From Escherichia coli (lineage in GTDB: Bacteria; Pseudomonadota; Gammaproteobacteria; Enterobacterales; Enterobacteriaceae), in the NCBI RefSeq assembly GCF_002854065.1, contig NZ_CP024147.1: a stretch of 64,000 bases of DNA; one strand, 5' to 3'. Shown here piece by piece: positions 12,551 to 64,000 of the stretch. The notes beneath the pieces were generated by a model. It was not told the origin of the DNA. It did not search any database and saw nothing but the letters and a program-made list of their open reading frames with translations. A program made the position numbers and the translations under genes. The first letter of the stretch is position 1; each line of letters starts with the position of its first letter.

Positions 12551-12596
12551 TAAACCGTTTGGATGCAATCCCTTGGCTATCCTGACGAGTTAACTG

Positions 12597-24414: not shown

Positions 24415-24807
<393 letters not shown>

Positions 24808-28216: not shown

Positions 28217-28293
28217 CGGCACGTAGCGCAGCCTGGTAGCGCACCGTCATGGGGTGTCGGGGGTCGGAGGTTCAAATCCTCTCGTGCCGACCA
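28217..28293 (+). tRNA. proL: tRNA-Pro
   Basis: 77-nt cloverleaf sequence CGGCACGTAGCGCAGCCTGGTAGCGCACCGTCATGGGGTG...TTCAAATCCTCTCGTGCCGACCA with encoded CCA end; acceptor stem CGGCACG/CGTGCCG; anticodon loop contains GGG (assigned from memory of proL). Confidence 0.92.
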
Positions 28294-30986: not shown

Positions 30987-31305
30987 TGAGCTTTCATCCT
31001 ATGAAATTAATTGCTGTTAAAAGCATTGGGTAGAGAAAATACCCATAGCTCCATACCCGGAGTCAGTTTTTAAAAACTGTTTAAAGAAATGCACAAGTAT
31101 TGTGATTGATTTTTTAGTTGTTTTTCTTGATGAGAAGCTGATGCAAAATTCCGTCTTTATAATGAAAATGATGCCAAAGCGAACGACAAGGTTGTAGTTT
31201 TCGCTACATGTCCATACATAAAATGGGGTAACATTCACGCGCCTGGTAGCGTTACCAACGCTACGCTCAAACATAATGATTCTAATAAAACCTCAGGAGA
31301 CTACT

Positions 31306-44533: not shown

Positions 44534-45022
44534 ATGAAGACCATTCTACCTGCAGTATTGTTTGCCGCTTTCGCCACCACTTCCGCCTGGGCGGCAGAGA
44601 GCGTCCAGCCACTGGAAAAAATCGCGCCTTATCCACAAGCTGAAAAAGGCATGAAGCGTCAGGTGATTCAGTTAACCCCGCAAGAAGATGAATCTACCCT
44701 GAAAGTAGAACTGTTAATCGGTCAGACGCTGGAAGTCGATTGCAATTTTCATCGTCTCGGCGGGAAGCTGGAAAGCAAAACGCTGGAAGGCTGGGGCTAT
44801 GATTATTATGTCTTTGATAAAGTTAGCTCGCCGGTTTCCACGATGATGGCCTGCCCGGATGGCAAGAAAGAGAAGAAATTTGTCACCGCGTATCTGGGCG
44901 ATGCTGGAATGCTGCGTTACAACAGCAAGCTGCCGATCGTGGTGTATACGCCAGACAATGTAGATGTGAAGTACCGCGTCTGGAAGGCGGAAGAGAAAAT
45001 TGACAACGCGGTAGTTCGCTAA
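44534..45022 (+). CDS. eco: Ecotin (periplasmic serine protease inhibitor)
   Basis: 162-aa ORF with signal peptide; matches ecotin as recalled. Confidence 0.95.
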
Positions 45023-45028
45023 ACTGCC

Positions 45029-45395
45029 GTGAAGTGCGGCACCCCGTAGGTTGGATAAAGCGGTCACGCCGCATCCGACATCTAACGCCCGAGCCGGTTG
45101 CCTGATGCGACGCTGACGCGTGTTATCAGGCCTACACCGCTGTGAAGTGCTCCACCCCGTAGGTCGGATAAGGCGGTTACGCCGCATCCGACATCCAACG
45201 TCCGAGCCGGTTGCCTGATGCGACGCTGACGCGTCTTATCAGGCCTACACCGCTGTGAAGTGCGGCACCCCATAGGTTGGATAAGGCGGTTACGCCGCAT
45301 CCGACATCCAACGCCCGAGCCGGTTGCCTGATGCGACGCTGGCGCGTCTTATCAGCATACGCCACATCCGGCATACCATGCCGGATGTGGCACAT
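45029..45395. repeat. BIME/REP array: three tandem 113-bp units plus a terminal perfect hairpin
   Basis: Unit starts at 45029, 45142 and 45255 (period 113), each carrying two REP-like palindromes; followed by perfect 14-bp inverted repeat gccacatccggcat/atgccggatgtggc (45361-45391) abutting the mqo stop. Confidence 0.85.
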
Positions 45396-45397
45396 CA

Positions 45398-47056
<1,659 letters not shown>

Positions 47057-47261
47057 TTACTTTTAGTCGCTTTATTGCAGGTGAGATTTGCGCGGCATCA
47101 ACGGTAACACTTAAGTAACAACATTTAAATAATGTTTATAAATTATATTCTAATTTTAGAAACATTATAATTTCGTTGATTAATTATAGGGTTATTAGAA
47201 ATGAAGGGATTTTTAGCATATTGACCTGGCGGCAGCAGTCCGCCAGGTCAGCGTCGTAATA

Positions 47262-48905
47262 TTATGCCGTCCGGGCAACGGCATCACGCGAAGCGGCATC
47301 GCGCTCTTCGCCCGTCAGCTCGCTAAGTTGCCCGTTGCGCATCTCCAGCAGGCGGTCGGCGTGGATAAAGTAATGATCATCATGACTGATGGCGAAAATA
47401 GTTTTACCCATCTCCTGCATCAGCGGCAGCAACACCTGATAAAACTCACGACGGAAGTGTGGATCCTGATCCGCCGCCCATTCATCCAGCAGGATAATAT
47501 CGCGTTCTTCTGCCAGCGCCAGCAACAGCGCCACGCGTTTTTTCTGCCCTTTTGATAACTTCAGGTTAACAATACGCCCGTTGCTTAACTCAAGCTTATG
47601 AGCCATTTTCAGCTGCGCCAGCCACTTCTCAACCAGTTGCGGGTTAGCGGGTTTACCCTCCGGCCCCAGCAGTTGATCAAACAGCCAGACATCGGTAAAC
47701 ACTGCCGAAAACAGTTTGCGATAATCTTCCGGTTGTTCGCCGCTGACAGGTTTGCCATCCAGCAAGATTTCGCCGCTTTGTGGCTGATACAAGCCCGTCA
47801 ACAACATCGCCAGCGTCGATTTTCCGCTACCGTTGCCGCCAATCAGAAACAGCAGCTCGCCACGTTTGATGGTGAGATTAATCGGACCAACGGAAAACGC
47901 GTTATCCTGATAAGCAAACGTCACGTTACGCAGCTCCAGCGTTTGCCAGTTGGGAAACGCCTGCGGGCGCGGAAACTCTGCTTTGAAAGGCGCGAGCGCG
48001 AATTTGTTCAGCTTGTTAAACGCCACCTGCGCCGTCAGCAGCGTCGGCAATGCGCCAACCGCCGAAAGCAGCGGCGTACGCAGGAATAAAAGCGTCAACG
48101 AATAGGTCGCGGCAACGTTGGTATCAGCCCAACCGAGGCTGTTCGCCATCCAGAACACCAGGCCGATTGCGCCCAGCATCATGATGTTTGACCAGTTCAC
48201 GGCACTAAGATGGAAGGTGTCTGCGCGAATAATATGATGGCGATACTCTTGCGCATCAGGAATGTAGAGGTTGTTAAACACATACTCGGCGCGTTCCCGG
48301 TTCAGAGTCAGCTCTTTGCGCCCTTCAAGTACAGTTTGAAAATCCGTGTACAGCTTGTCTTCGGTTTCACGCAGGGTCGCCATATGTTTGTACACCCGCG
48401 CCACCAGCACAAAACCGCCCCAGATGGTGATCGCCATCCAGATAGCCGTTACCAGCAACATTTTGCCCGACAGCATCCACAGATACGCCGCAGAACCGAT
48501 AGTGAGAATGATCCCCTGCACCAGTTCCGGCAGACGCACAAAAGCAATGGTGATATTACGCACATCGCTGGTTAATCCCGCCAGCAACGAGGCGCTACCG
48601 AGTTGTTCAATGCGCTCGACGTGAGTATCCAGAATCCGCTTGATAAATTCACTACGCAGTCGGTAAACGAAGTGATGCCCCAAAGTGGTGAGCGCCAGTT
48701 GCGATCCGAGAGTGACTGCCATCAACAGCAGCAATAATCCCAGAAACTCCGGCAACACCAGCAGACTGGTATCCGCCGTTTCGATAAGGCGCTGATTGAT
48801 AAAAGCAATTAAGCCAATGCCTAAAGCCGCACTGGCGAGGCTTAGCGCCATCACACTGATAAATGGCCAGCGATACTGCCGCCAGACAAGTACAAGAAGT
48901 TCCAT
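47262..48905 (-). CDS. yojI: ABC transporter (fused permease/ATPase), microcin J25 efflux
   Basis: 547-aa ORF with N-terminal TM domain and C-terminal ATPase (GGNGSGKST); matches YojI as recalled. Confidence 0.9.
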
Positions 48906-48980
48906 GCAGAAAACCCGGACAATGAATTACAGCCCGCAGTTTAAACATCTTCGCGCGCACAGCAATAATAATTCTTATTT

Positions 48981-49631
48981 TTATTCTTTTTTACCTGCCT
49001 GACGGAATGTCAGGTTGTAGCGGCAGTCGGTGGTGAGTGGATGAAACCCCGCTTTCAACGGTTGAATACCGTGATAAAACAGCCGCGATTCACCGCCCCA
49101 TACCACCACATCGCCATGTTCCAACAACAAACGTTTGAGCGGATCATTACGTTTCAGGCCACCAAATTGAAAAATCGCGGGTAAGCCCAGAGAAACAGAA
49201 ACAATTGGCGCGCGCAGATCCGGTTCGTCTTTATCCTGATGCAGCGACAGTTTCGCGCCAGGAGCGTAGCGGTTGATAAGACAAGCATCTGGCTGGAAAT
49301 CTGGATAGCCCGCCGCCGTAGCCGCACGTTGACATAAATTATGAAAACTCTGCGGCATGGCGGGCCACGGTTTATTTGTTTGCGGATCAATGGGCGAATA
49401 GAGATAACCTTGCCGATGGGTCGTCCAGCCCAGATGCCCACAGTTGGTCATCGCCACCGACATGGTATATCCCCCGGGGGTGACCATCTGGCGAAACGGC
49501 GACTGGCTGGCAACGTCATTAATATCGCGGATCAGTTGCTCCGCAGCGTTAAAAGCAAAACGCCGTAAAATTACCGCACCAGCCGCCAGTGGCTCTTGCC
49601 ACGGTTCAGCATCGGCAAACAGATCCAACAT
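48981..49631 (-). CDS. alkB: Alpha-ketoglutarate/Fe(II)-dependent DNA/RNA demethylase AlkB
   Basis: 216-aa ORF, start/stop coupled to ada (1-nt overlap); matches AlkB as recalled. Confidence 0.93.
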   Translation of the reverse strand: MLDLFADAEPWQEPLAAGAVILRRFAFNAAEQLIRDINDVASQSPFRQMVTPGGYTMSVAMTNCGHLGWTTHRQGYLYSPIDPQTNKPWPAMPQSFHNLCQRAATAAGYPDFQPDACLINRYAPGAKLSLHQDKDEPDLRAPIVSVSLGLPAIFQFGGLKRNDPLKRLLLEHGDVVVWGGESRLFYHGIQPLKAGFHPLTTDCRYNLTFRQAGKKE

Positions 49632-50695
49632 TACCTCTCCTCATTTTCAGCTTCGCGGCGCAGCAGTTGCGCTTTGCGCGACGCGCCCCAGCGGTAACCT
49701 GAAAGCGATCCATCACCGCGTACTACCCGATGACAGGGTATAACGATAGCCAGCTTGTTGGCGGCACAGGCACTTGCAACGGCCCGTACCGCTTTCGGTT
49801 TGCCGATGGCGTTAGCCAGTTGCTGATAACTGACGGTTTCACCGCAAGGTATCGTGCGCAGTGCCTGCCAGACTTGTTGCTGAAAAGCAGTGCCGCGAAT
49901 ATCCAGCGGTAACGTCAGCGGCGTATCGCGTTGATTGAGGCTGGCGATCACTTCACGCACATGTTGCTGAAACGTCAGATCGGCAGGCGCGTTGTCGGCA
50001 GCGGGAAACATCTGCTGCAACTCGCTGATTAATGTCGCGTCATCATCGCCCAGCAATATCGCGCAAATCCCCCGCTCGCTTTCTGCCACCAGGCAACGAC
50101 CCAGCGCACAATCAGCCAGCGCGTAACGCACCGCCAGATTTTCGCCACCGTGACGGAATTGTTTAGCCGTCATGCCCAGCGTTTCGTCAGCTTTGCGGTA
50201 GTAACTGCTGCTGTCGGGGAATCCGGCGTTAAGAATAGACGTCGTCACGCTCTCCCCTTTCGCCAGCGATTCGCGCAAACGGCGAACGCGCCAGGCCTGT
50301 TGCCAGGCTTTAGGCGTCATTCCGGTAGTCGCTTTAAACAACCGATGCAGATGGAACGGACTCATCGCCACCTGGTCGGCTAAGACTTCCAGCGTTACAG
50401 GCGTTTCCTGTTCCAGCAGTCGACACGCGTGGGTGATTTTATCCAACCGATGTTGCCGGGGATTGGCTTTGTCTGGCTGACAACGTTTGCAGGGGCGAAA
50501 TCCGGCGGCGAGTGCCTCGCTGGCATTTGCGTAGAAGGAGACGTTTTCCCGCAAAGCATGTCTGGCGCGGCAAGACGGACGGCAAAAGATGCCTGTGGTG
50601 CGCACGGCGAAAACGAATTCGCCGTCGGCATTCGGGTCGCGGGCTAAGACAGATTGCCAGCGTTGATCGTCAGTTAAGCATGTGGCGTTTTTCAT
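49631..50695 (-). CDS. ada: Bifunctional transcriptional activator / O6-methylguanine-DNA methyltransferase Ada
   Basis: 354-aa ORF with N-terminal Cys cluster, AraC-type HTH and C-terminal PCHRV active site. Confidence 0.95.
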   Translation of the reverse strand: MKNATCLTDDQRWQSVLARDPNADGEFVFAVRTTGIFCRPSCRARHALRENVSFYANASEALAAGFRPCKRCQPDKANPRQHRLDKITHACRLLEQETPVTLEVLADQVAMSPFHLHRLFKATTGMTPKAWQQAWRVRRLRESLAKGESVTTSILNAGFPDSSSYYRKADETLGMTAKQFRHGGENLAVRYALADCALGRCLVAESERGICAILLGDDDATLISELQQMFPAADNAPADLTFQQHVREVIASLNQRDTPLTLPLDIRGTAFQQQVWQALRTIPCGETVSYQQLANAIGKPKAVRAVASACAANKLAIVIPCHRVVRGDGSLSGYRWGASRKAQLLRREAENEER

Positions 50696-50754
50696 AATCA
50701 GCTCCCTGGTTAAGGATAGCCTTTAGTCTGCCCGGTCACCATGGCACAAAAACC

Positions 50755-50775
50755 AACAATCTTGCGCTTTAATTT
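50755..50775 (-). promoter_or_regulatory. Ada box in the ada promoter
   Basis: Minus strand reads AAAAAAATTAAAGCGCAAGATTGTTGG; AAAGCGCA core at 50763-50770, about 70 bp upstream of ada ATG; overlaps the apbE stop codon. Confidence 0.7.
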
Positions 50776-51824
50776 TTTTCGCTGATAAGGAAGCTTTTAA
50801 ACTGCGGCGACATCCAGGTTTTAAAGCTATCACCTTCTTTGGTGATCATGTAGACCGCCAGCCCTTCCCGGCGAACAACCTCTTTGGCTTTCTCCGGCCC
50901 GAGCACCATTAAGCCAGTATCCCAGGCATCGGCTTCCAGCGCCGTCGGAGCAATCACCGTCACGGATACCAGATTGTGTTCGATGGGACGCCCGGTTTGC
51001 GGATCGATAACATGGGAAAGACGTTTGCCGTCCAGTTCGTAATAGTTACGGTAGCTGCCAGAGGTGCTAATCCCATGACCGTTGATATCCACCACAGCCT
51101 GAACCGCGTTTTCTTTATCGGTTGGTTTTTGAATCGCTACCCGCCACGGCAGGCCTTCACCGTTCATACCACGGCTGTTCAGCGCGCCGCCCACCGACAC
51201 CAGATAGCGGGAAATCCCTTCCTGCTCCATCAAGCGTGCCAGGTGATCCGCCGCATAACCTTCGCCGACGGTAGAGAGATCGACATATAAATCCGGCAGG
51301 TCTTTTTGCAGATATTGCTGATGCGACTGATTAATGACCGTCAGGTGCTGTAAGCCAGTTTTGGCTTTCATCGCATCGATCTGTTCCTGGCTCGGAATTT
51401 GAACCGGCTGTTGTTCCGGGCCAAAGCCCCACAGATTCACCAGCGGCCCGACGGTTATATCCATCGCACCATCGGTCCTTGCGCCAATGCGCAGCGAGGT
51501 GGTGACGATATCGGCCATCGCTTCACTTACCGGCCACGGCGACAAACTTTGCGAGTCGTTAAAGCGCATCAGCGCGGAATCTTTTTTATAGGTCGAAAGC
51601 AGCTGATCGTCGGCGTCCAGCTGGGTCTGAATCTTTTCTTTAAGTTCGGCGCTGCGTTTGGCGTCAATGCCCGGGATGCTGGCACGCCAGAAGGTACCCA
51701 TAGTTTTGCCTTCAAGAACGGTAACTTCAGTAGCGTGGGTTTTGGCGGGTTGTGGTTTTTGATCGCAACCAACAAAGAAGAGCGCGGCAGCCAGCAGTGC
51801 CACACGGGTAAAGCTTATTTCCAT
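50769..51824 (-). CDS. apbE: FAD:protein FMN transferase lipoprotein ApbE/Ftp
   Basis: 351-aa ORF with lipoprotein signal (FFVGC); matches ApbE as recalled. Confidence 0.92.
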   Translation of the reverse strand: MEISFTRVALLAAALFFVGCDQKPQPAKTHATEVTVLEGKTMGTFWRASIPGIDAKRSAELKEKIQTQLDADDQLLSTYKKDSALMRFNDSQSLSPWPVSEAMADIVTTSLRIGARTDGAMDITVGPLVNLWGFGPEQQPVQIPSQEQIDAMKAKTGLQHLTVINQSHQQYLQKDLPDLYVDLSTVGEGYAADHLARLMEQEGISRYLVSVGGALNSRGMNGEGLPWRVAIQKPTDKENAVQAVVDINGHGISTSGSYRNYYELDGKRLSHVIDPQTGRPIEHNLVSVTVIAPTALEADAWDTGLMVLGPEKAKEVVRREGLAVYMITKEGDSFKTWMSPQFKSFLISEKN

Positions 51825-51893
51825 ACGTGATTATCCTCATGCGAACGGTCGCAAGAGTACACCAAAAAACTGAGTTTGTACGCTGAAAACAAT

Positions 51894-51917
51894 GAAAAAA
51901 GGGCCCGCAGGCCCTTT
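51894..51917 (-). terminator. Intrinsic terminator after ompC
   Basis: Minus strand reads caaagggcctgcgggccctttttt: GC stem followed by U-run, 19 nt past the ompC stop. Confidence 0.75.
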
Positions 51918-51935
51918 GTTCGATATCAATCGAGA

Positions 51936-53078
<1,143 letters not shown>

Positions 53079-53164
53079 TTATATGCCTTTATTTGCTTTT
53101 TTATGCCACTGCATACTGATTAACCCTCATTAATCAGTCGGCAAGTCCATTCTCCCCAAAAATG

Positions 53165-53245
53165 CAGAATAATCCAACACGAATATGATACTAAAACTTT
53201 TAAGATGTTTCATTTATCGCTATAGATGTTTCAAAATGTAAATGC
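53165..53245 (-). promoter_or_regulatory. OmpR-binding region of the ompC promoter (C1-C3), shared with divergent micF
   Basis: Minus strand contains TTTACATTTTGAAACATCTA (53223-53242) and downstream repeats of the TGAAACATCT-type half-site. Confidence 0.65.
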
Positions 53246-53397
53246 AAGGGAACTTTTTAAGATTATTACGGAATGGCGAAATAAGCACCTAACATCAAGC
53301 AATAATAATTCAAGGTTAAAATCAATAACTTATTCTTAAGTATTTGACAGCACTGAATGTCAAAACAAAACCTTCACTCGCAACTAGAATAACTCCC

Positions 53398-53490
53398 GCT
53401 ATCATCATTAACTTTATTTATTACCGTCATTCATTTCTGAATGTCTGTTTACCCCTATTTCAACCGGATGCCTCGCATCCGGTTTTTTTT
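53398..53490 (+). ncRNA. micF: MicF antisense sRNA (represses ompF translation)
   Basis: GCTATCATCATTAACTTTATTTATTACCGTCATTCATTTCTGAATGTCTGTTTACCCCTATTTCAACCGGATGCCTCGCATCCGGTTTTTTTT: matches micF as recalled, ending in a hairpin terminator with U-run; divergent from ompC. Confidence 0.9.
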
Positions 53491-53801
53491 ACCCTTCTTT
53501 ACACACTTTTCATTATTCTGTGCTACCACAGAAAAACTATAACGCTTGTTAACTATTTCACAAATAATTAACATCAGCATAATTTCCAGCAATCTTTGTT
53601 TATTTGCAATTATTTTTGTTGGGCTTTTTGTAGGTTATTTGTACAGCAAAATGGCGCTTGTACATCTATTTCCCCCAATGCAGGATGATAAATATCACGG
53701 GAGAATAGAGAATCATCAATCAGGTAAGAGTCTGGAATTTCACACTGTACCCTTTATACTGCCCTATCACTTCGCGAAGTTTTAACAGGTCATAAACACG
53801 A

Positions 53802-56474
53802 ATGCGTCAGAAAGAGACAACGGCCACGACCCGCTTTTCACTCCTACCGGGGAGCATTACCCGCTTCTTTTTACTGTTGATCATTGTGTTACTGGTGACG
53901 ATGGGGGTAATGGTACAAAGCGCCGTTAACGCCTGGCTGAAAGATAAAAGTTACCAGATTGTCGACATTACCCACGCAATCCAAAAGCGCGTCGATACCT
54001 GGCGTTACGTGACCTGGCAGATCTACGACAACATTGCCGCGACGACCTCCCCCTCCTCCGGCGAAGGTTTACAAGAGACGCGCCTGAAACAGGATGTCTA
54101 CTATCTGGAAAAACCGCGCCGCAAAACGGAAGCGTTAATCTTTGGCTCTCACGACAACTCAACGCTTGAGATGACTCAACGGATGTCCACCTATCTGGAC
54201 ACATTGTGGGGCGCAGAAAATGTACCGTGGTCGATGTATTACCTGAATGGTCAGGATAACAGTCTGGTGCTGATCTCAACCCTGCCCCTCAAAGATCTCA
54301 CCTCCGGATTTAAAGAATCGACCGTCAGTGACATTGTTGATTCACGTCGTGCAGAGATGTTGCAACAGGCCAACGCCCTCGATGAACGCGAAAGTTTTTC
54401 TAACATGCGCCGCCTGGCCTGGCAGAACGGTCATTACTTTACCTTGCGTACCACGTTCAACCAGCCGGGACATCTGGCAACGGTTGTGGCTTTTGATCTG
54501 CCGATTAATGATTTGATCCCACCGGGTATGCCGCTGGACAGTTTCCGCCTTGAGCCAGACGCGACGGCAACGGGAGACAATGATAATGAGAAAGAAGGGA
54601 CGGATAGCGTCAGTATCCACTTTAACAGTACGAAGATTGAAATCTCCTCGGCACTCAACTCTACCGATATGCGACTGGTCTGGCAGGTTCCTTATGGCAC
54701 CTTATTGCTGGATACGTTGCAAAACATTCTGCTGCCACTGCTGCTGAACATCGGTTTGCTGGCGCTGGCGTTATTTGGCTATACCACATTCCGCCATTTC
54801 TCCAGTCGCAGTACAGAAAGTCTACCCAACACGGCGGTCAATAACGAATTGCGCATTTTACGGGCAATCAATGAAGAGATAGTCTCACTGCTGCCGCTCG
54901 GCCTGCTGGTTCACGATCAGGAATCGAACCGCACTGTCATAAGTAACAAAATTGCCGATCATTTGCTGCCGCATTTGAATCTGCAAAACATCACCACCAT
55001 GGCGGAACAGCATCAGGGGATTATTCAGGCGACGATCAATAACGAGCTGTATGAGATCCGCATGTTCCGCAGCCAGGTCGCGCCGCGCACACAAATTTTC
55101 ATTATTCGCGATCAGGATCGCGAAGTGCTGGTAAACAAGAAACTCAAGCAGGCGCAGCGTCTGTATGAGAAAAACCAGCAGGGGCGGATGACCTTTATGA
55201 AAAACATTGGCGATGCGCTGAAAGAACCTGCACAGTCCCTGGCGGAGAGCGCGGCTAAACTCAACGCCCCGGAAAGCAAACAACTGGCGAATCAGGCAGA
55301 TGTGCTGGTGCGGCTGGTCGATGAAATACAGTTAGCGAACATGCTTGCGGACGATAGCTGGAAAAGTGAGACGGTGCTGTTCTCCGTGCAGGATTTAATT
55401 GATGAAGTTGTGCCTTCAGTGTTGCCTGCCATCAAGCGTAAAGGTCTGCAACTGCTGATTAACAATCATCTGAAAGCACACGATATGCGCCGCGGCGATC
55501 GCGATGCCTTACGACGTATTTTGCTGCTACTGATGCAATATGCCGTGACCTCAACGCAATTGGGAAAAATCACCCTTGAGGTTGATCAGGATGAGTCCTC
55601 CGAAGACCGCCTGACGTTCCGCATTCTGGACACCGGAGAAGGCGTAAGCATTCATGAAATGGATAATTTGCACTTCCCGTTTATCAACCTGACCCAAAAC
55701 GATCGCTATGGCAAGGCGGACCCGCTGGCATTCTGGCTGAGCGATCAACTGGCACGTAAACTGGGCGGTCATTTAAACATCAAAACGCGGGATGGGCTTG
55801 GTACACGCTACTCTGTGCATATCAAAATGCTCGCAGCTGACCCGGAAGTTGAAGAGGAAGAAGAGCGTTTACTGGATGATGTCTGCGTAATGGTGGATGT
55901 TACTTCGGCAGAAATTCGGAATATTGTCACTCGCCAGTTAGAAAATTGGGGTGCAACCTGTATCACACCCGATGAAAGATTAATTAGTCAAGATTATGAT
56001 ATCTTTTTAACGGATAATCCGTCTAATCTTACTGCCTCTGGCTTGCTTTTAAGCGATGATGAGTCTGGCGTACGGGAAATTGGGCCTGGTCAATTGTGCG
56101 TCAACTTCAATATGAGCAACGCTATGCAGGAAGCGGTCTTACAATTAATTGAAGTGCAACTGGCGCAGGAAGAGGTGACAGAATCGCCTCTGGGCGGAGA
56201 TGAAAATGCGCAACTCCATGCCAGCGGCTATTATGCGCTCTTTGTAGACACAGTACCGGATGATGTTAAGAGGCTGTATACTGAAGCAGCAACCAGTGAC
56301 TTTGCTGCGTTAGCCCAAACGGCTCATCGTCTTAAAGGCGTATTTGCCATGCTAAATCTGGTACCCGGCAAGCAGTTATGTGAAACGCTGGAACATCTGA
56401 TTCGTGAGAAGGATGTTCCAGGAATAGAAAAATACATCAGCGACATTGACAGTTATGTCAAGAGCTTGCTGTAG
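53802..56474 (+). CDS. rcsD: Rcs phosphorelay phosphotransfer protein RcsD
   Basis: 890-aa ORF with N-terminal TM/periplasmic region and C-terminal HPt domain; immediately upstream of rcsB. Confidence 0.92.
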   Translation: MRQKETTATTRFSLLPGSITRFFLLLIIVLLVTMGVMVQSAVNAWLKDKSYQIVDITHAIQKRVDTWRYVTWQIYDNIAATTSPSSGEGLQETRLKQDVYYLEKPRRKTEALIFGSHDNSTLEMTQRMSTYLDTLWGAENVPWSMYYLNGQDNSLVLISTLPLKDLTSGFKESTVSDIVDSRRAEMLQQANALDERESFSNMRRLAWQNGHYFTLRTTFNQPGHLATVVAFDLPINDLIPPGMPLDSFRLEPDATATGDNDNEKEGTDSVSIHFNSTKIEISSALNSTDMRLVWQVPYGTLLLDTLQNILLPLLLNIGLLALALFGYTTFRHFSSRSTESLPNTAVNNELRILRAINEEIVSLLPLGLLVHDQESNRTVISNKIADHLLPHLNLQNITTMAEQHQGIIQATINNELYEIRMFRSQVAPRTQIFIIRDQDREVLVNKKLKQAQRLYEKNQQGRMTFMKNIGDALKEPAQSLAESAAKLNAPESKQLANQADVLVRLVDEIQLANMLADDSWKSETVLFSVQDLIDEVVPSVLPAIKRKGLQLLINNHLKAHDMRRGDRDALRRILLLLMQYAVTSTQLGKITLEVDQDESSEDRLTFRILDTGEGVSIHEMDNLHFPFINLTQNDRYGKADPLAFWLSDQLARKLGGHLNIKTRDGLGTRYSVHIKMLAADPEVEEEEERLLDDVCVMVDVTSAEIRNIVTRQLENWGATCITPDERLISQDYDIFLTDNPSNLTASGLLLSDDESGVREIGPGQLCVNFNMSNAMQEAVLQLIEVQLAQEEVTESPLGGDENAQLHASGYYALFVDTVPDDVKRLYTEAATSDFAALAQTAHRLKGVFAMLNLVPGKQLCETLEHLIREKDVPGIEKYISDIDSYVKSLL

Positions 56475-56490
56475 CAAGGTAGCCTATTAC

Positions 56491-57141
56491 ATGAACAATA
56501 TGAACGTAATTATTGCCGATGACCATCCGATAGTCTTGTTCGGTATTCGCAAATCACTTGAGCAAATTGAGTGGGTGAATGTTGTCGGCGAATTTGAAGA
56601 CTCTACAGCACTGATCAACAACCTGCCGAAACTGGATGCGCATGTGTTGATTACCGATCTCTCCATGCCTGGCGATAAGTACGGCGATGGCATTACCTTA
56701 ATTAAGTACATCAAGCGCCATTTCCCAAGCCTGTCGATCATTGTTCTGACTATGAACAACAACCCGGCGATTCTTAGTGCGGTATTGGATCTGGATATCG
56801 AAGGGATCGTGCTAAAACAAGGTGCACCGACCGATCTGCCGAAAGCTCTCGCCGCGCTGCAGAAAGGGAAGAAATTTACCCCGGAAAGCGTTTCTCGCCT
56901 GTTGGAAAAAATCAGTGCTGGTGGTTACGGTGACAAGCGTCTCTCGCCAAAAGAGAGTGAAGTTCTGCGCCTGTTTGCGGAAGGCTTCCTGGTGACCGAG
57001 ATCGCTAAAAAGCTGAACCGCAGTATTAAAACCATCAGTAGCCAGAAGAAATCTGCGATGATGAAGCTGGGTGTCGAGAACGATATCGCCCTGCTGAATT
57101 ATCTCTCTTCTGTGACCTTAAGTCCGGCAGATAAAGACTAA
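56491..57141 (+). CDS. rcsB: Response regulator RcsB
   Basis: 216-aa product from ATG 56491 (MNNMNVIIADDHPIV...), receiver + LuxR-type HTH; track ORF extends upstream in frame. Confidence 0.95.
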   Translation: MNNMNVIIADDHPIVLFGIRKSLEQIEWVNVVGEFEDSTALINNLPKLDAHVLITDLSMPGDKYGDGITLIKYIKRHFPSLSIIVLTMNNNPAILSAVLDLDIEGIVLKQGAPTDLPKALAALQKGKKFTPESVSRLLEKISAGGYGDKRLSPKESEVLRLFAEGFLVTEIAKKLNRSIKTISSQKKSAMMKLGVENDIALLNYLSSVTLSPADKD

Positions 57142-57147
57142 TCATCT

Positions 57148-57462
57148 GTAGGCCAGATAAGACGCGTTAGTGTCTTATCTGGCATTTGCACCGATTGCCG
57201 GATGCGGCGTAAACGCCTTATCCGTCCTACGATTCCCATTATTTCAACAGATTACATTAAAGTAGGCCAGATAAGACGCGTCAGCGTCGCATCTGGCATT
57301 TGCACTGAATGCCAGATGCGGCGTAAACGCCTTATCCGTCCTACGATTCCCATTATTTCAACAGATTACATTAAAGTAGGCCAGATAAGACGCGTCAGCG
57401 TCGCATCTGGCATTTGCACTGAATGCCAGATGCGGCGTAAACGCCTTATCCGTCCTACGAAT
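57148..57462. repeat. BIME/REP array: three tandem 114-bp units between convergent rcsB and rcsC
   Basis: Unit starts at 57148, 57262 and 57376 (period 114), each carrying REP-like palindromes (gccagataagacgcg...cgcatctggc and gccagatgcggcgtaaacgccttatcc); last unit runs into the rcsC stop codon. Confidence 0.85.
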
Positions 57463-60304
57463 CCCGCGATTTCCTGACCCTCTCGGCATATACCGTCAGC
57501 GTCTGTTTTATCACATCCAGCGTTACCGGCTTCGACAGGCAGCTGTCCATACCGGACTCCAGACACCGCTGCTTCTCTTCAGCCAACGCATTAGCAGTTA
57601 CTCCGATTACCGGCAACGTCAGTCCCAACTGACGAATGCGTTGCGTCAAGCGGTAACCATCCATATTTGGCATGTTGACGTCGCTAAGCACGATATCAAT
57701 ATGATTCTTGCTAAGTACATTAAGCGCATCGACGCCATCATTCGCGGTTTTACATTGATAGCCCAACGATCCCAACTGATCTGCCAGCAGACGTCGGTTA
57801 ATCGGATGATCATCCACGACCAGAATCATCATATCGTCATTATCGCTGACCGCTTTGTCCGTCGACGGCAGAGCGTTAGCAGGATCGTCGCTCTCCATCT
57901 CGATCAAATAAATACGCGCCAACAATGCCGGTAGCTCATGCGGAGCAGCCACACTGTGTACCCACTCCCCTGGCGCTTTCTCCAGCGGAATACCAATATG
58001 TCGACGACAGAAGGTCACTACCGCTCTGCCCTGCCATTTTTTACTCACTACCTCGTCAGTGATTAACACATCTTCGGGAGTCGGTTCCTGCCCTTCGTAT
58101 GTTGTAACGACGATGCCGCTGCGCTGCAAACTGGTTTCCAGGAACTGACAGAGCGACGCATTGCGGACCGCCAGCCAGCAGCGTTTACCACTCAGCCCTT
58201 CCACGCCTTTTTTCTGCGGGTACTGAGCGCCGTACAACGGAATACGCACGGTAAACTGGCTGCCCATTCCCGGTTCTGAATCTACCGAGATGTCGCCGTC
58301 CATCATGCTGATCAGTTTTTCACAAATCGCCAGACCCAGACCGGTCCCCTGGAAGTTTCGCTGTACGCCCGTTCCGACCTGGAAGAAGGGATCAAACAAG
58401 CGCACCACTTCTTTCGCCGGAATCCCCACGCCGGTATCGCGAACACGGATAGAGAGATAATCGCCATCAGCGCGGACATGCAAAACTATACAGCCGGTAT
58501 CAGTGAATTTTATGGCGTTACTCAACAGGTTGGAGATGACCTGCTGTAAACGCATCGGGTCGCCATTTAAAGCCACTGGCACATCCGGTTCAATAAAGCA
58601 GTACAAGCCTAACTGCTTGCGTACCACCAGCGGTAAATAGTTGGCGGTGATGTGGTTCATCACTTCACGCGGTGAAAACTCACGCGGTTCGATCTTCAAC
58701 TGTTCCGATTCAATCTTCGAGAAATCGAGAATATCGCTGATAATTTTCAACAACAGGCTGGAAGAGTTGTTCATTGCCGTCACCAGACGATCGACGCCTT
58801 TCGGTAACTCTTTGGTTTGCAACAGATCCAGGTTACCGATAATGCCATACAGCGGCGTTCGCAGCTCATGACTGACGGTGGCAAGGAACATCGATTTTGA
58901 CTGGCTCGCCTGTTCCGCTGCTTGTGCCATCTCCTGCAACGACTCTTCCATCTTCACGCGCGAAGAAACATCCACCAGCACACAAATGGCCACGTTTTCA
59001 TTACGATAGCGCGAATGGACGAAGCTGATTTGCAGATTGGTATTGTTGCTGGTCAGGACATCAACAAAATTGACCTGCTGCCCACAGATAATTTGTGTCA
59101 GCCGTTGGCGGTCCTCATGCGTAAGCATATTGAGATAGGTATGCGCCAGTTCGTTACTTAAAATATTGACGCCATCTGCGGTACGCAAAATACAGATACC
59201 CACTGGCGCGGAGGCGACAATCTTGCGGTTAAACTGCTCATGTTCTTCCAGTCGCAGGGCATCGCTTTCCGCCGGAATGAAAATACGCCGCTCGTACATC
59301 CGCGCGAGAGTAAACAATGCAGCTCCAGCAAGCACATTCAGCAAAATTGCGTTAAGGATCAACATGCGAATGCGTTCCAGCACCTTATCAACCGGCACCG
59401 AATAAACGATGCTTAGCGATGAGGGAGGCAGATTTTTCTTCAGCACCAGCTCCCGGAAACCTTCCGTATAGCCAAACCAGGAGCGTTCCTGCATCCAGCG
59501 AGGATCGCCCTTAATTTTGCTTTCTGGTCCGGTAAGCGAAATCAGGGTATGACCATTTTCATCAAGAATGGTAACCCCCATCGGCAACGTACCCGGTAAG
59601 AAAAAATTCTCCATCCGGATGGTCTGCTCGACACCCAAAAGCGCCTGCAACCTGTTCGCCAGATAAACTGGCGTCAACGCGTAAAAATACCCGACGCCAG
59701 GGCGCGGACCTTCGCTGATCCAGTAGAGGTTACTGCCGCTATCATCTTGTGGTGCATTTCGATATTTATTGATGCGTTCATGCAACGCTTTCAACGCGGT
59801 ATCGCGTTCCACTGGCATATCACGCAGACCGAAATTGGCCATGCAGAGGTTATCGCTGCCGATTAAAAATACCCGGTTGAGATCGTAAGCCGCAGAAAAA
59901 TTATCGCGCCAGTAGCGCATAAACCACGCCAATGACTCCAGAGAACCTCGCCAGGTGTTACTCATTGCGGAACAATCGGAGTCGGCAAACAGCGGTTCAA
60001 ACGCAGGCACATCCGCCTGCGTTTCTCGTCCACGCGGGGAAAGCACACCGTTTTCTGCCGATAAGCGATTTTCAGCGATGTACTTCAGCTCTTTCATCAC
60101 ATCAGAGGTGCGTTGAATAAAGCGCTGAGCCTGATCGGAACTCAGATTAAATTCCTGACGAATTTCCGATTCTCGCTGATGTAACGCATTAACGATGTAA
60201 AAAACGGATGAAAAAGCAATCAACAGCCAGAGCACTAACGCCAATGCTCTGAACATGTAGCGCGAGGCTTTCAGGGTTGTACGAAAAGAAGCAAGGTATT
60301 TCAA
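57455..60304 (-). CDS. rcsC: Hybrid sensor histidine kinase RcsC
   Basis: 949-aa ORF with N-terminal TM/periplasmic domain, HisKA/HATPase core and C-terminal receiver domain. Confidence 0.93.
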   Translation of the reverse strand: MKYLASFRTTLKASRYMFRALALVLWLLIAFSSVFYIVNALHQRESEIRQEFNLSSDQAQRFIQRTSDVMKELKYIAENRLSAENGVLSPRGRETQADVPAFEPLFADSDCSAMSNTWRGSLESLAWFMRYWRDNFSAAYDLNRVFLIGSDNLCMANFGLRDMPVERDTALKALHERINKYRNAPQDDSGSNLYWISEGPRPGVGYFYALTPVYLANRLQALLGVEQTIRMENFFLPGTLPMGVTILDENGHTLISLTGPESKIKGDPRWMQERSWFGYTEGFRELVLKKNLPPSSLSIVYSVPVDKVLERIRMLILNAILLNVLAGAALFTLARMYERRIFIPAESDALRLEEHEQFNRKIVASAPVGICILRTADGVNILSNELAHTYLNMLTHEDRQRLTQIICGQQVNFVDVLTSNNTNLQISFVHSRYRNENVAICVLVDVSSRVKMEESLQEMAQAAEQASQSKSMFLATVSHELRTPLYGIIGNLDLLQTKELPKGVDRLVTAMNNSSSLLLKIISDILDFSKIESEQLKIEPREFSPREVMNHITANYLPLVVRKQLGLYCFIEPDVPVALNGDPMRLQQVISNLLSNAIKFTDTGCIVLHVRADGDYLSIRVRDTGVGIPAKEVVRLFDPFFQVGTGVQRNFQGTGLGLAICEKLISMMDGDISVDSEPGMGSQFTVRIPLYGAQYPQKKGVEGLSGKRCWLAVRNASLCQFLETSLQRSGIVVTTYEGQEPTPEDVLITDEVVSKKWQGRAVVTFCRRHIGIPLEKAPGEWVHSVAAPHELPALLARIYLIEMESDDPANALPSTDKAVSDNDDMMILVVDDHPINRRLLADQLGSLGYQCKTANDGVDALNVLSKNHIDIVLSDVNMPNMDGYRLTQRIRQLGLTLPVIGVTANALAEEKQRCLESGMDSCLSKPVTLDVIKQTLTVYAERVRKSRDS

Positions 60305-60578
60305 AGGGGCGAAGCTCCGCCTCAGGTGACCGATGGAGTGTGGTTAAGGTAGCGGTAAAAGCGTGTTACCGCAATGTTCTGTCACCATTGCAATAATGCG
60401 TATCGCTTAGAAACCATTGCCTTAACCAGGAAAGCCGGAGTAAATGGACAGTTCTCAGTACGAAAAATAAGAAATGACCAATCTGCCGACGCTTGTTAAT
60501 GGTTATATCCTGGCGTCGGCAGATCGCCCAGCAGTCTTATCTGAAAAAAGAAAGAGCCAGGTTGTGTGAAGGGATGGA

Positions 60579-61355
60579 TCACCAGTCAAAACTTTTCACC
60601 AGCGTCAGCTCGCCAGCATTACGCATCGGTACAATAAATTTTTCCTGTTTCTCATTGACCGATCCTTCATCGGTAATCAGCGTCAGTTGGGCGGTGGTTA
60701 ATTCCGTTTCGCTGCGCCCACCATAGTAGTTGATATACACCTGATAGCGCCCGTGAACTGGCGCTGGCATGGCGAAAATCTCGGGTCCGTACCCCGTCGT
60801 GACATCCATATCCAGTGCACCACTGTTTTTCAGCACGGTGTTACCGTACCAGGCGTGTTCGCCATCGGGCGTGACAACATGGAGATCGAGATCGGTATTG
60901 TCCGTATCCCACGAGAGAACCAGCCGTAAACGTGCACGAATCGTTCCTGTACCCGGCGTTGAGTAAAACTGCATTTTTTGTCGGCTTTGCCCATCCGGGC
61001 TGATGACCTGCACGCTGTTGCTGCCTTCAGTGAAAATATAAGGGCGTGCAAATGAACCATCGGATTCAATTCTCTGCGGCATACTGGCACCGTTGACCAC
61101 CAGCCGGCCCTGCTGAGCTTTACCCGCCGCAGCATAATTCTTTATTTTGCCGCGGATCTGCGCTGAGATATTTTGATCATCTGCCATGTTGACGGACGAC
61201 GCCGGGTAATTGATCGATTGTGAAAAACTGGCATCTTCGCCCTCTGCCGGATGCCAGCCTGAGAGCGGTGCGTCAATCTCGACTTCCTGCACACCTTCAC
61301 TGTGAGCGACAGGCGAAAGCGCCACCAGTAACAACAGAAGAAAAATCTTTCGCAT
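60579..61355 (-). CDS. yfaP: Secreted/periplasmic protein of unknown function (DUF2135-like)
   Basis: 258-aa ORF with signal peptide; matches YfaP as recalled; last gene of the yfaS-yfaQ-yfaP string. Confidence 0.8.
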   Translation of the reverse strand: MRKIFLLLLLVALSPVAHSEGVQEVEIDAPLSGWHPAEGEDASFSQSINYPASSVNMADDQNISAQIRGKIKNYAAAGKAQQGRLVVNGASMPQRIESDGSFARPYIFTEGSNSVQVISPDGQSRQKMQFYSTPGTGTIRARLRLVLSWDTDNTDLDLHVVTPDGEHAWYGNTVLKNSGALDMDVTTGYGPEIFAMPAPVHGRYQVYINYYGGRSETELTTAQLTLITDEGSVNEKQEKFIVPMRNAGELTLVKSFDW

Positions 61356-61359
61356 AGCA

Positions 61360-63009
61360 TTAGTCCATTAATAATTGTCGGGTCAGCGTTTCGATATAGT
61401 TCTCATCAAGCCCGGTGGGATAACCATCAAAGGCCAGGTGCAGATACTCATGGGTTAAATCCAGCCGATCCTGAAGCGTAAAGAAGTTACGAATAAACAG
61501 CCGTTTCTGCTGCCGATCGGTATAGGGGAAACCTGAGACTAAACGACAGACCGCAAACACGTCTGGTTCGTTGTACCCCGTCTCGCCTTGTAATATACGC
61601 CGCCACTGCGGCATTTTTTTCGCCAGCCAGGCTTTCGCTTTGGGTAATAACTGACAGGTTGAGCGTGGCGCTCCCCAGCGGCTAAGGCTGTTGTCGGGAT
61701 AAGCAAACGCGAGTATCTGGTCGTAACGCTCTCCCCGCCCCGCCTGGGCCATGGCTTGCCGCCAGGAAAGCGTCCCTTCGGTAGCGCGACTGCCGTGATA
61801 ATGAACCGGATCGCCCGCATAGATGAGATCCTGCGTCCAGGCGGTCATCGTTCGCGCCCCCGTGGTAGCTGGCGAAGCAGAAACACGCTGCGTGGCGCTG
61901 CTGTCGGGGATGGTCAGGCAATCGCCTTCCCGATTGGCGTTTTGCTGTAAAAAAGTGCGAATTGCCACGGTCATGGCTTTCGCTGCCTCAGGGGGCGTAC
62001 TTTTCGCCTCGCGATCCAGAACTCTGGCAACGTACTCTTCACGATCGAGATGCGACTGCAATTTCAGTTTGCCCTTTTCGCTCAGTAAGGTCGTCTCACC
62101 GTGGCTGACAAACGTAATGTGGTTACCATTGGCAAATGTCACACGATAGCGCCCATTAAGTACGCCGGGTTTTACTGACGTCGTACTCTTTTCCGCTGTG
62201 ATTTTCTTCAGCGGATAGCGGGCAAATAGCTCCATCTCTACACATTGCCCACTGGCAACTTGTGTCGGCACTGGCAAAACCCGATTAAGCACCGTCGCAT
62301 AACGGGTCAGTACCGTTTTGCTGGTGCCACTGCCAGTCACCCACAGCGGTGTACCATCGGTTAACCAGCCGGCAAAACCACCCTGACGGATTTCCTGTTT
62401 ATCATCGGCAAACCAGCTCCAGGTTTTCACCCGAACCCGACTACCGAGCATGGATGCGACACCGATTTTCGCCTCGTCCAGCACCACATCCAGTAAGACT
62501 TCCTGAGCTTTGTTTTGCGCAGGTAACGTCGCTAATGAATCAAGCAGCGATTTAACCGTTACCGAGGTTTCTGGCTTCAGCGTAGTAAGAGACGCTAACC
62601 ACGCAGGTGCCTGACGCTGTTGCCAGTATTGCCCCCACACATCTGCGCCAATATGCAACCGCTGCGGCGCAAAATAGAGCCCACAGGAACGTACCAGCGC
62701 GGTATCGCGCGTTATGCTCTCCCCAGCCTGACAACAATAAACCTCTTCCGGGGAGTTTCCGCGACACTGGTAGGGCTGCTCCGGTTGATGGGTATCCTCC
62801 AGCCAGGCGTAAACATACAGTTTCCACAAACTCCCTAACGGCGTGGTGAGCGAGTCAGGTAATGTCGAGGCTTTGGTCACGCCTGATGACGACAGCTGAT
62901 ACAGTTGATCGTGCTGCGCACCACGCAGTGCCAGTTGTAACGGCGTCTCCTCCGCAAGCGTTGGCAGAGTAACCAACGCCAATAGCCAGACGATTCTGCG
63001 CCAGTTCAC
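61360..63009 (-). CDS. yfaQ: Secreted protein of unknown function (DUF2300-like)
   Basis: 549-aa ORF with signal peptide; matches YfaQ as recalled; abuts yfaS stop. Confidence 0.8.
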   Translation of the reverse strand: MNWRRIVWLLALVTLPTLAEETPLQLALRGAQHDQLYQLSSSGVTKASTLPDSLTTPLGSLWKLYVYAWLEDTHQPEQPYQCRGNSPEEVYCCQAGESITRDTALVRSCGLYFAPQRLHIGADVWGQYWQQRQAPAWLASLTTLKPETSVTVKSLLDSLATLPAQNKAQEVLLDVVLDEAKIGVASMLGSRVRVKTWSWFADDKQEIRQGGFAGWLTDGTPLWVTGSGTSKTVLTRYATVLNRVLPVPTQVASGQCVEMELFARYPLKKITAEKSTTSVKPGVLNGRYRVTFANGNHITFVSHGETTLLSEKGKLKLQSHLDREEYVARVLDREAKSTPPEAAKAMTVAIRTFLQQNANREGDCLTIPDSSATQRVSASPATTGARTMTAWTQDLIYAGDPVHYHGSRATEGTLSWRQAMAQAGRGERYDQILAFAYPDNSLSRWGAPRSTCQLLPKAKAWLAKKMPQWRRILQGETGYNEPDVFAVCRLVSGFPYTDRQQKRLFIRNFFTLQDRLDLTHEYLHLAFDGYPTGLDENYIETLTRQLLMD

Positions 63010-64000
63010 TTATTTCACCTGCATCCCGGGCCATTCGCTCCCTGCCGCAACACTTTGCTGCGCAGGTGCATAGGAACGCACATAACGAGCAGGAGGCAGA
63101 ACGAATTGCCCTTTTTGCGAGAAGCGCAGCAAATGGCGGAAAGTGACCGTTCCCGTCAGTTCTTTCACCGGCACCATATAGGCCAGTTCGCCCATTTCAT
63201 TACGCGCTTTTTCCAGCAATTGCCCCTGCTGTTTCGCGGCGTTGGGTTTATTGACTGAAATGCCCCATGTTGTGCGCTCAACGTCGGCTCCCGGCGGGAG
63301 CGGTACTTCCACCTGACCATAGCGCAGAACTGCATCCTGCTCGCTGGTAAGCTTAATTTCATCGAGATACAGCGCATCGCTGTCAATCTCATTGCTGGTC
63401 ACCGGCTGCAGAGTAAAGCTCATCTCTTCTTCACCGGGGATAAGCCGATACAACTGGCGTTCAACGGTCACCGGAATGTTACTTTGTTGAGCCGTTTTTG
63501 CCGGTTCACGCCAGCGGACCTGCACATTTTGCGGCGATAATTCGTCACCAAAAGAGAGAATGTCCGGCACGCCCTGACCAACCCAACGCCAGTATTCGCC
63601 CCCTCCAGTTAACTTATGTTTGGCCCATGCGCCCGCAGGCGCAGGCAACACAACCGAAGGCATTGTCGCCATATATTTCGCCAGCCAGTTCATGGCCAGC
63701 GCGCGCTCAATAGTAGATTGCTCAGCGGTCAAACCACTTAAAATAGCAGCCGCCTGGGTAGCGTCACCACCGCTATTGAGCAGCACAACCGTGTGCGCCA
63801 GCGGCTGATTGCTGTTTGCCGCTTTATCCCACGCATATTGCTGAACCTGAGGCATCACCGTGGACTTCAACTGCGCTTTTTTCAGCAACGTCATGGTTAA
63901 GACGTTTGCCACCGCATCTGCCAGTGGAGATTCCGGTGTATCGAGGATCAGGCTGTCATTGATATCGCGGGGGTCTTCCTCCGAGAAATCTTCAGTTTTA
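63010..64000 (-). CDS. yfaS: Alpha-2-macroglobulin-family protein, C-terminal part only (frame open to window end)
   Basis: Minus-strand frame open from 64000 to the stop at 63010; position directly upstream of yfaQ fits yfaS; the M at 63912 in the ORF track is only an internal GTG. Confidence 0.65.

Follow-up and report, generated by a model that had tools for sequence, protein, structure and literature searches.

The closest described relative of the genes analysed here is the alpha-2-macroglobulin operon magABCDEF of Pseudomonas aeruginosa (PA4492-PA4487). Its macroglobulin, MagD, traps a protease after cleavage of the bait region without needing a thioester, and binds MagA, MagB and MagF in a 1:1 ratio (PMC5764988). 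MagD is part of an inner-membrane complex (PMC3735191), and magD guards cells against the peptidoglycan-targeting type VI secretion system (T6SS) effectors VgrG3 and Tae1 (PMC12663445). Deletion of magE changes the forms of MagD, giving higher-mass species and less MagD (PMC5764988, PMC3735191), and MagC, a DUF1175 protein, has been described as an inactive peptidoglycan binder (PMC10318531). Here we compare with this system the genes yfaS, yfaQ and yfaP of Escherichia coli, which lie at the end (positions 60579 to 64000) of a 64,000-nucleotide stretch of contig NZ_CP024147.1, referred to below as the window. A preliminary description of this DNA had called the operon class poorly understood, a view that is dated, as the Pseudomonas orthologues have been studied both biochemically (PMC3735191, PMC5764988) and genetically (PMC12663445). 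The same description held that YfaQ had no assigned biochemical function; a domain assignment and a deletion phenotype have, however, been published for E. coli YfaQ (PMC12282094), and a structure, 7BK8, has been deposited for MagC.

A second system for comparison is found in E. coli itself, namely YfhM (ECAM) and PBP1c (pbpC), of the 'type I' class. YfhM, a lipoprotein, has an active thioester of the CLEQ type, and PBP1c is a synthase with glycosyltransferase and transpeptidase domains. As in the yfa operon, a periplasmic macroglobulin stands beside a bifunctional-looking peptidoglycan enzyme, in which penicillin-binding-type and glycan-strand-directed domains are combined. The trap-plus-repair logic proposed for this pair (summarised in PMC5764988) fits the yfa operon.

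The complete genome nearest to the window is that of E. coli strain CUWW06 (NZ_CP182139.1, locus L001), and it was used as the near-identical reference: over window positions 46000-64000, 7 of 18,001 bases differ, and over 58000-64000 there are few mismatches at most. The gene order in CUWW06 is gyrA, yfaA, yfaT, the macroglobulin gene, yfaQ, yfaP, rcsC. Therefore, the three open reading frames (ORFs) in the window are the tail of a five-gene operon, yfaA-yfaT-yfaS-yfaQ-yfaP, of which yfaA and yfaT lie upstream of yfaS and outside the window. The preliminary description of a tightly coupled, macroglobulin-associated operon is borne out in both of these respects, although the operon comprises five genes and not three. 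The parts seen in the window are as follows:

60579-61355, minus strand: yfaP, 258 amino acids, ATG start; MagF orthologue
61360-63009, minus strand: yfaQ, 549 amino acids, GTG start; MagE orthologue
63010-64000, minus strand: 3' part of yfaS, codons ~1205-1534 plus the stop, 330 codons visible, including the bMG10 domain
63007-63020, minus strand: yfaS/yfaQ junction, with the yfaS TAA at 63012-63010 and the yfaQ GTG at 63009-63007 and zero spacer
61353-61362, minus strand: yfaQ/yfaP junction, with the yfaQ TAA at 61362-61360, a 4-nt spacer, TGCT, and the yfaP ATG at 61355-61353

These junctions were read directly, and the boundaries given previously (63010/63009 and 61360/61355, all three ORFs on one strand) proved exact. 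The gene names agree with the RefSeq annotation of CUWW06, in which the genes are labelled rcsC, yfaP, yfaQ and 'alpha-2-macroglobulin family protein'. A sequence resembling a Shine-Dalgarno (SD) element, AGGTGA, is present at 63020-63015, 5 nt ahead of the yfaQ GTG, whereas the SD of yfaP is weak, which fits translational coupling to yfaQ. Both N-termini resemble Sec signal peptides, as had been proposed: those read from the sequence are MNWRRIVWLLALVTLPTLA|EE for YfaQ and MRKIFLLLLLVALSPVAHS|EG for YfaP, each consisting of a short basic part and a hydrophobic core followed by an A-x-A or H-S type cleavage site. A Sec signal peptide has also been predicted for YfaQ in the literature (PMC12282094), and the same prediction has been made for MagE and MagF (PMC3735191).

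The E. coli proteins were compared with those of the six-gene Pseudomonas knackmussii locus (L003), which encodes, in order, YfaP_C, DUF2138, MagC, macroglobulin, DUF2300/SpoIID and YfaP_C proteins; all identities given here were measured against this locus. They were 44% for YfaA and MagB, 75% for YfaT and MagC, 55% for YfaS and MagD, 53% for YfaQ and MagE, and 53% for YfaP and MagF, with 40% for YfaP and MagA. In addition, K-12 YfaT matches PDB entry 7BK8, 'MagC', with E 1.8e-103. The E. coli macroglobulin is flanked, in order, by DUF2138 (MagB), DUF1175 (MagC), DUF2300 (MagE) and DUF2135 (MagF) proteins, which is the order of the corresponding mag genes of P. aeruginosa (MagB/YfaA, MagC/YfaT, MagD/YfaS, MagE/YfaQ, MagF/YfaP), and the start/stop coupling and the absence of the thioester cysteine from the macroglobulin are likewise common to both species. 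The Pseudomonas six-gene form begins with MagA, a MagF paralogue, whereas in E. coli and other Enterobacterales there are five genes with gyrA directly upstream of yfaA; the MagA-less set is a variant within the Mag family and not an exclusion from it. Judged by its genes and sequence, yfaA-yfaT-yfaS-yfaQ-yfaP is the enterobacterial form of the operon-type ('type II') bacterial alpha-2-macroglobulin system. The biochemistry itself comes from Pseudomonas Mag, and the E. coli system would work in a similar way.

The arrangement is conserved well beyond the window. The segment from yfaA to yfaS was found in 5396 of 5426 complete E. coli genomes, with at least 80% coverage in 5181. In a species survey in which one genome per species was scanned, a YfaQ relative was found in 272 species and 80 loci were kept, mostly from Pseudomonas and also from Enterobacterales, Methylobacter, Aeromonas, Lysobacterales, Massilia, Janthinobacterium and Tepidiphilus. 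The order macroglobulin-YfaQ-YfaP was kept in every surveyed locus with a long enough flank. The gap between the macroglobulin and YfaQ genes was -8 to +7 nt in 67 of 72 loci, and that between the YfaQ and YfaP genes was -4 to +5 nt in 69 of 78. Such short gaps across species indicate that tight coupling is a conserved property and not a chance feature of one strain. None of the five operon proteins matched a PADLOC defence model (0 matches), the NCBIfam search with YfaP and YfaS gave only noise (betaine-aldehyde dehydrogenase, dextranase), and an Rfam scan of 60305-64000 found no RNA family.

The folds and conserved residues of YfaQ were evaluated using a phmmer search, in which 1.84 billion representatives were searched and 294 relatives were found, and an alignment of 48 full-length homologues with 27-48% identity. 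The AlphaFold2 (AF2) model made from this alignment had a mean predicted local distance difference test (pLDDT) score of 93.1 and a predicted template modelling (pTM) score of 0.83. Pfam matched DUF2300 twice with a central SpoIID, and three modules were distinguished:

62260-62943, minus strand: YfaQ penicillin-binding/class D beta-lactamase-like domain, residues ~23-250, with S60-x-x-K63, S108-C109 and K195-T196 invariant
61660-62244, minus strand: YfaQ SpoIID-like lytic-transglycosylase domain, residues ~256-450, SpoIID fold, with E334 invariant
61363-61659, minus strand: YfaQ C-terminal module, residues ~451-549, with C452, C488, H520-E521-x-x-H524, E536 and E540 invariant

In the AF2 model, residues ~23-250 take the penicillin-binding/beta-lactamase fold, in which S60xxK63 opens a helix, S108-C-G is in a loop, and K195-T196 is on a strand, with the glycine of KTG replaced by F, W or Y. 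The S60-S108 and S60-K195 spacings are 48 and 135 residues, presumably near those of class D enzymes in the OXA-10 numbering. In the central domain, E334 aligned with the glutamate of 'AGEMS', residue 101, in C. difficile SpoIID (5txu) and was invariant in 48 of 48 sequences; we take residue 101 to be the catalytic residue of 5txu. The match of this domain to Pfam PF08486 was partial, at 26.1 bits (E 1.4e-5). In the 80-genome set, the invariance of Y326, R329, R333 and E334 was forced, because these residues were part of the scan pattern; they were equally invariant in the independent set of 48 sequences. YfaQ also contains seven conserved cysteines, which fit an oxidising periplasm. A single-sequence search of the PDB with YfaQ matched nothing.

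The C-terminal module is modelled as a helix, three strands, the HExxH helix and an acidic helix. A histidine follows six residues after HExxH, in a metzincin-like spacing, in 70 of 80 homologues; the corresponding position in YfaQ is residue 530 (61420-61422), and it is tyrosine in Escherichia and a few others. No metallopeptidase fold was present among the fold matches listed for this module, and Pfam matched only DUF2300. Our hypothesis is that the module may be a minimal zinc peptidase, as the order of secondary-structure elements in the model is that expected for one.

Pfam DUF2300 matched YfaQ residues 84-205 and 412-532 strongly (E 6e-43 and 5e-45). An internal duplication was considered as the source of the two matches and rejected, as the comparison between the halves gave a BLASTP E of 0.9 and an hhalign probability of 0.07%, and the two have different folds. 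The label 'tandem DUF2300' may therefore reflect a mixed Pfam model and not a true repeat.

YfaQ differs from the known proteins that its modules resemble. The lytic transglycosylases SpoIID and SleC belong to Firmicutes and sporulation, whereas YfaQ is found in Proteobacteria, in a macroglobulin operon, and has its SpoIID-like domain fused to two more modules. Relative to class D beta-lactamases and the BlaR1/MecR1 sensor domain, YfaQ has K-T-aromatic as the third motif instead of K-T-G and gives no sequence-profile match; furthermore, the protease of BlaR1 is an N-terminal, membrane-embedded M56 domain, whereas the HExxH module of YfaQ is soluble and C-terminal. The glycan-directed domain of YfaQ is of the degradative, SpoIID-like kind, in contrast to that of the synthase PBP1c, and no sequence homology between YfaQ and PBP1c was detectable in the searches run.

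YfaP consists of a signal peptide followed, in the structure model, by two beta-sandwich domains. It belongs to PF09906 (YfaP_C/DUF2135, COG4676; E 2.6e-16), a 48-residue C-terminal model that was its only Pfam match, and 1556 homologues have the same domain; the PDB sequence search gave only noise. The most conserved part of YfaP is residues ~30-56 (window ~61188-61268), with P30, G33, W34, Q46, Y50, P51 and A52 invariant, and it is just here that the model is unstructured and its confidence lowest. This pattern suggests a segment that docks on a partner and may become ordered only on binding, which fits the reported 1:1 complex of MagF with MagD. The domain searches and structure models that had been recommended for YfaQ and YfaP thus gave a three-module protein and a two-domain MagF orthologue.

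In the window, the yfaS frame is open from 63010 and runs past the window end at 64000, and in CUWW06 the gene is full length, with 1534 codons. The preliminary description had given yfaS as a K-12 pseudogene and named two observations that would speak against its reading, a frameshift or stop in the upstream part of yfaS and domain searches showing the ORFs to be unrelated to this operon. The pseudogene status is correct: NC_000913.3 carries a pseudogene flag on yfaS (b4500) of K-12 MG1655. Alignment of the K-12 and CUWW06 genes showed no indel, and a single in-frame stop, W1368 TGG>TGA at codon 1368 of 1534, is the sole K-12 lesion:

63511-63513, minus strand: yfaS codon 1368, TGG (Trp) in the window and TGA in K-12

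The upstream part of yfaS, read in CUWW06, contains neither a frameshift nor a stop, and Pfam matched CUWW06 YfaS to A2M_BRD (3.8e-17), A2M (6.2e-12) and bMG10 (2.5e-5; part within the window); the PDB sequence search with YfaS gave a weak match to complement C5 alone. To determine how common the TGA allele is, we searched the 5426 complete E. coli genomes with a 55-mer, each 28-base seed of which spans the single-nucleotide polymorphism. It was found in 364 genomes, and the 25 rows sampled were mostly named K-12 or laboratory strains.

The start codon of yfaS requires correction. The RefSeq/PGAP start in CUWW06 is a GTG, which leaves the protein without its putative signal peptide; a further 90 nt of open frame leads up to an ATG (MDTQRF..., L001 21525-21615, minus strand, just past the window end) that overlaps yfaT by 67 nt, matching the K-12 and Salmonella annotations. 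With this start, the protein is 1534 and not 1504 amino acids long, and its N-terminus ends ...GTGLANA|DD, with an A-x-A-type site that, by eye, is kept across taxa. A lipoprotein reading of YfaS, from the stretch 'IAAC', was considered and judged unlikely, as the cysteine varies whereas the A-x-A cleavage site is conserved.

The suggestion that the locus may be intact holds for yfaS in CUWW06, where the gene is full length, and codon 1368 is TGG in the window, but yfaT is frameshifted in CUWW06 and in another near neighbour. The CUWW06 lesion is a 5-bp deletion of one GTGTT tandem-repeat unit at codons 12-13 (L001 ~22129-22138), inside the signal peptide. This allele is present in 11 of the 5426 genomes, from assorted hosts and including two of the four closest to the window, which itself ends short of the site. 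It looks like the product of recurrent slippage or the mark of a small clade.

The literature defines operon-type macroglobulins as lacking the thioester and any cysteine (PMC3735191, PMC5764988). YfaS contains no C.EQ motif anywhere, and its aligned thioester site is GGVIN, further degenerated than the GGVEQ of P. aeruginosa PA7. When the aligned site was read in 74 loci, each time in the macroglobulin gene that precedes YfaQ, three kinds of site were found:

GCVEQ (canonical, YPYGCVEQTASRLLPL), 23 of 74 loci: P. viridiflava, the P. alcaligenes group, Methylobacter, Lysobacterales, Massilia and Janthinobacterium
GGVEQ, 44 of 74 loci: most Pseudomonas, including P. aeruginosa PA7
GGV[I/V]N or GGAIN, 7 of 74 loci: Enterobacterales
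Loci with GCVEQ: L003 3808-8355, L014, L015, L021, L024, L025, L027, L043, L061-L063
Further loci with GCVEQ: L070-L072, L074-L077, L079, L081, L083, L084, L086, L088

A Salmonella locus (L007), fetched separately, has GGVLN. The operon of the GCVEQ loci is likewise of the Mag type and comprises six genes in 21 of them and five in the other 2. It appears from these alignments that the thioester-less definition generalises from two species, P. aeruginosa and E. coli, and the distribution of sites suggests that the thioester may have been lost stepwise within the operon-type macroglobulins. The textbook sorting of bacterial macroglobulins into a 'type I' with the thioester and a 'type II' that lacks it would, as this suggests, be an over-generalisation.

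Taken together, these results make it fairly probable, in our judgement, that yfaA-yfaT-yfaS-yfaQ-yfaP encodes a periplasmic complex of a macroglobulin trap and a cell-wall enzyme. In this model, the five genes would be expressed on one transcript, with the distal genes translationally coupled, and YfaS, YfaQ and YfaP would be exported to the periplasm. There, a hydrolase cutting the bait region of YfaS would be caged by it, and only non-covalently, because the thioester site of YfaS is degenerate. YfaP would be a non-enzymatic subunit of two beta-sandwich domains docking on the macroglobulin, and YfaQ the enzymatic or cell-wall-binding partner, which would bind or cut peptidoglycan. YfaA, as a membrane anchor, and YfaT, as an NlpC/P60-like peptidoglycan binder, would complete an inner-membrane-associated periplasmic complex that limits the damage done by incoming hydrolases and remodels or repairs damaged peptidoglycan. 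The combination of a macroglobulin with a penicillin-binding-type, glycan-directed protein, as in YfhM and PBP1c, would explain protection against cell-wall-degrading effectors. The transpeptidase-like and SpoIID-like domains of E. coli YfaQ were already published in 2025, and the yfaQ deletion gave wider cells in four growth conditions and clustered with mepS, mepK, nlpI and other envelope mutants (PMC12282094).

Several observations weigh against the proposed trap and cell-wall-enzyme complex. No penicillin-binding protein or beta-lactamase family was matched by YfaQ in Pfam, NCBIfam or PDB sequences, its third penicillin-binding motif is K-T-[F/W/Y] and not K-T-G, and its score against the NCBIfam SpoIID/LytB model TIGR02669 was 18.1 bits, below the cut-off of 83.3. 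A promoter scan of the operon identified none, giving two weak internal matches, below the shuffled count. The cytoplasm was the only compartment of P. aeruginosa in which MagE was detected, and purified MagD did not bring MagE with it (PMC3735191). YfaQ can act without a full-length macroglobulin, because the phenotype of its deletion was recorded in K-12, a strain whose yfaS is a pseudogene. Moreover, yfaQ is missing from about 2% of E. coli genomes (PMC12282094), and the K-12 nonsense mutation and the yfaT frameshift show that the locus is under non-uniform selection in E. coli.

Some of these observations could instead mean that YfaQ/MagE is, as proposed in the Mag papers, a non-enzymatic maturation or chaperone factor, acting in export, signal-peptide removal or processing, with YfaP a mere stabiliser and the enzyme-like folds dead. 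This would account for the higher-mass and less abundant MagD in the magE deletion, and for a MagE that is cytoplasmic by fractionation and stable without MagD (PMC5764988, PMC3735191); the replaced glycine of K-T-G and a partner, MagC/DUF1175, called an inactive peptidoglycan binder (PMC10318531) point the same way. However, dead scaffolds usually lose catalytic residues, whereas S60, K63, S108, K195, T196, E334 and HExxH are invariant in the 48 and the 80 homologues, at 27-55% identity, and the signal peptide and seven conserved cysteines point to the periplasm. The phenotype of the yfaQ deletion was, furthermore, seen in K-12 without intact YfaS (PMC12282094). We regard the chaperone explanation as doubtful. 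At the other extreme, YfaQ/MagE could be the catalytic core of the system, a periplasmic enzyme to which a serine DD-peptidase or sensor domain, a lytic transglycosylase of the SpoIID type and a minimal HExxH zinc peptidase would each contribute one active site. It would remodel damaged peptidoglycan and process the macroglobulin; the ancestral operon would have had a working GCVEQ thioester, lost in the order GCVEQ > GGVEQ > GGVIN, and the 'type II' definition would be wrong. Proteolysis of the macroglobulin by YfaQ/MagE, if true, would explain the altered MagD forms in the magE deletion. We offer this fuller version only tentatively, as rather unlikely in its entirety.

It is improbable, in our estimate, that the operon is a decaying relic in E. 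coli, having lost an ancestral thioester trap and retaining little or no present function in the window strain. The thioester site is indeed at its most degenerate in the Enterobacterales, which have GGV[I/V/L]N or GGAIN where other groups have GCVEQ or GGVEQ. In addition, MagA, the paralogue that leads the six-gene operon, is absent, K-12 has the W1368* nonsense mutation, the yfaT frameshift occurs in 11 genomes including close relatives of the window, and the third histidine of the YfaQ HExxH module is tyrosine in Escherichia. Decay of the operon is nevertheless difficult to reconcile with the near-universal presence of the yfaA-yfaS segment, or with a TGA allele whose sampled carriers are mostly K-12 and laboratory strains. 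In the window, yfaQ and yfaP are full length, the visible yfaS is open, and the putative catalytic residues of YfaQ are intact; furthermore, the Cys-less MagD of P. aeruginosa still traps protease and protects cells (PMC5764988, PMC12663445). We consider it more improbable still that YfaQ, perhaps together with YfaP, remodels peptidoglycan as a housekeeping factor independent of the macroglobulin, its place in the operon reflecting co-regulation only. Such independence would agree with the wider cells of the K-12 yfaQ deletion in four conditions despite the yfaS stop (PMC12282094) and with the recovery of MagD in pull-downs without MagE (PMC3735191), and a lone YfaP-like gene, described below, is also in its favour. 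K-12 may, however, still produce a YfaS that ends at residue 1367, and the YfaQ gene directly follows the macroglobulin gene in 74 of 74 readable loci, mostly within a few bases, a pattern that is difficult to account for if the two are functionally unconnected.

A Rhodocyclaceae locus (L008, 10001-10837) contains a lone YfaP-like gene; genes for a macroglobulin, YfaQ, MagB and MagC are all absent within 10 kb of it. Therefore, DUF2135 proteins are not confined to the operon.

Downstream of yfaP, the window differs from K-12, in which the atoSCDAEB operon lies between rcsC and yfaP. This operon is absent from window positions 60305-60578, where a 69-nt remnant of the atoS 5' end, 78% identical, is found at ~60486-60553; the contiguous rcsC-yfaP arrangement is present in only 1539 of the 5426 genomes. 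The yfa operon consequently points at rcsC, with both on one strand, and lacks the clean terminator that K-12 has between atoB and yfaP. The features in this region are:

57455-60304, minus strand: rcsC, the window gene downstream of yfaP
60480-60525, minus strand: hairpin with a 13-bp stem, then a U-rich tract, downstream of yfaP (RNA fold z -2.45)

The hairpin may be a non-canonical terminator ahead of rcsC; it was not matched in a consensus terminator scan, which found no canonical terminator after yfaP. Elsewhere in the window, naRNA4 elements (derived from repetitive extragenic palindromes, Rfam RF02564) are present as three copies at 57151-57455, directly after the rcsC stop, and two copies at 45162-45357, and MicF (53397-53490), tRNA-Pro (28217-28290) and an L25 leader (24476-24501) were also seen. 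The yejO autotransporter gene (~28396-30987) is annotated as intact in CUWW06; in K-12 it is presumably a pseudogene disrupted by an insertion sequence. Further periplasmic envelope-maintenance genes in the window are eco (ecotin, ~44535-45023) and mepS (~11985-12551).

The locus itself is already known and annotated and is nearly universal in E. coli, and its orthologues have been studied; what makes the present analysis of interest is the combined reading of YfaQ and the survey of thioester sites, and not any peculiarity of the window. It brings together two bodies of work that make no reference to one another: the Mag papers, which treat MagE as a possible cytoplasmic chaperone and do not mention its enzyme-like folds (PMC3735191, PMC5764988), and the E. 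coli YfaQ paper, which does not mention the macroglobulin operon (PMC12282094). Because yfaS is intact in wild E. coli, such strains are a better background for study than K-12. The joined reading provides a testable explanation for the protection by the mag operon against peptidoglycan-targeting T6SS effectors, and, if the three-site reading of YfaQ is true, the whole operon would be a trap-and-repair machine against cell-wall-degrading effectors.

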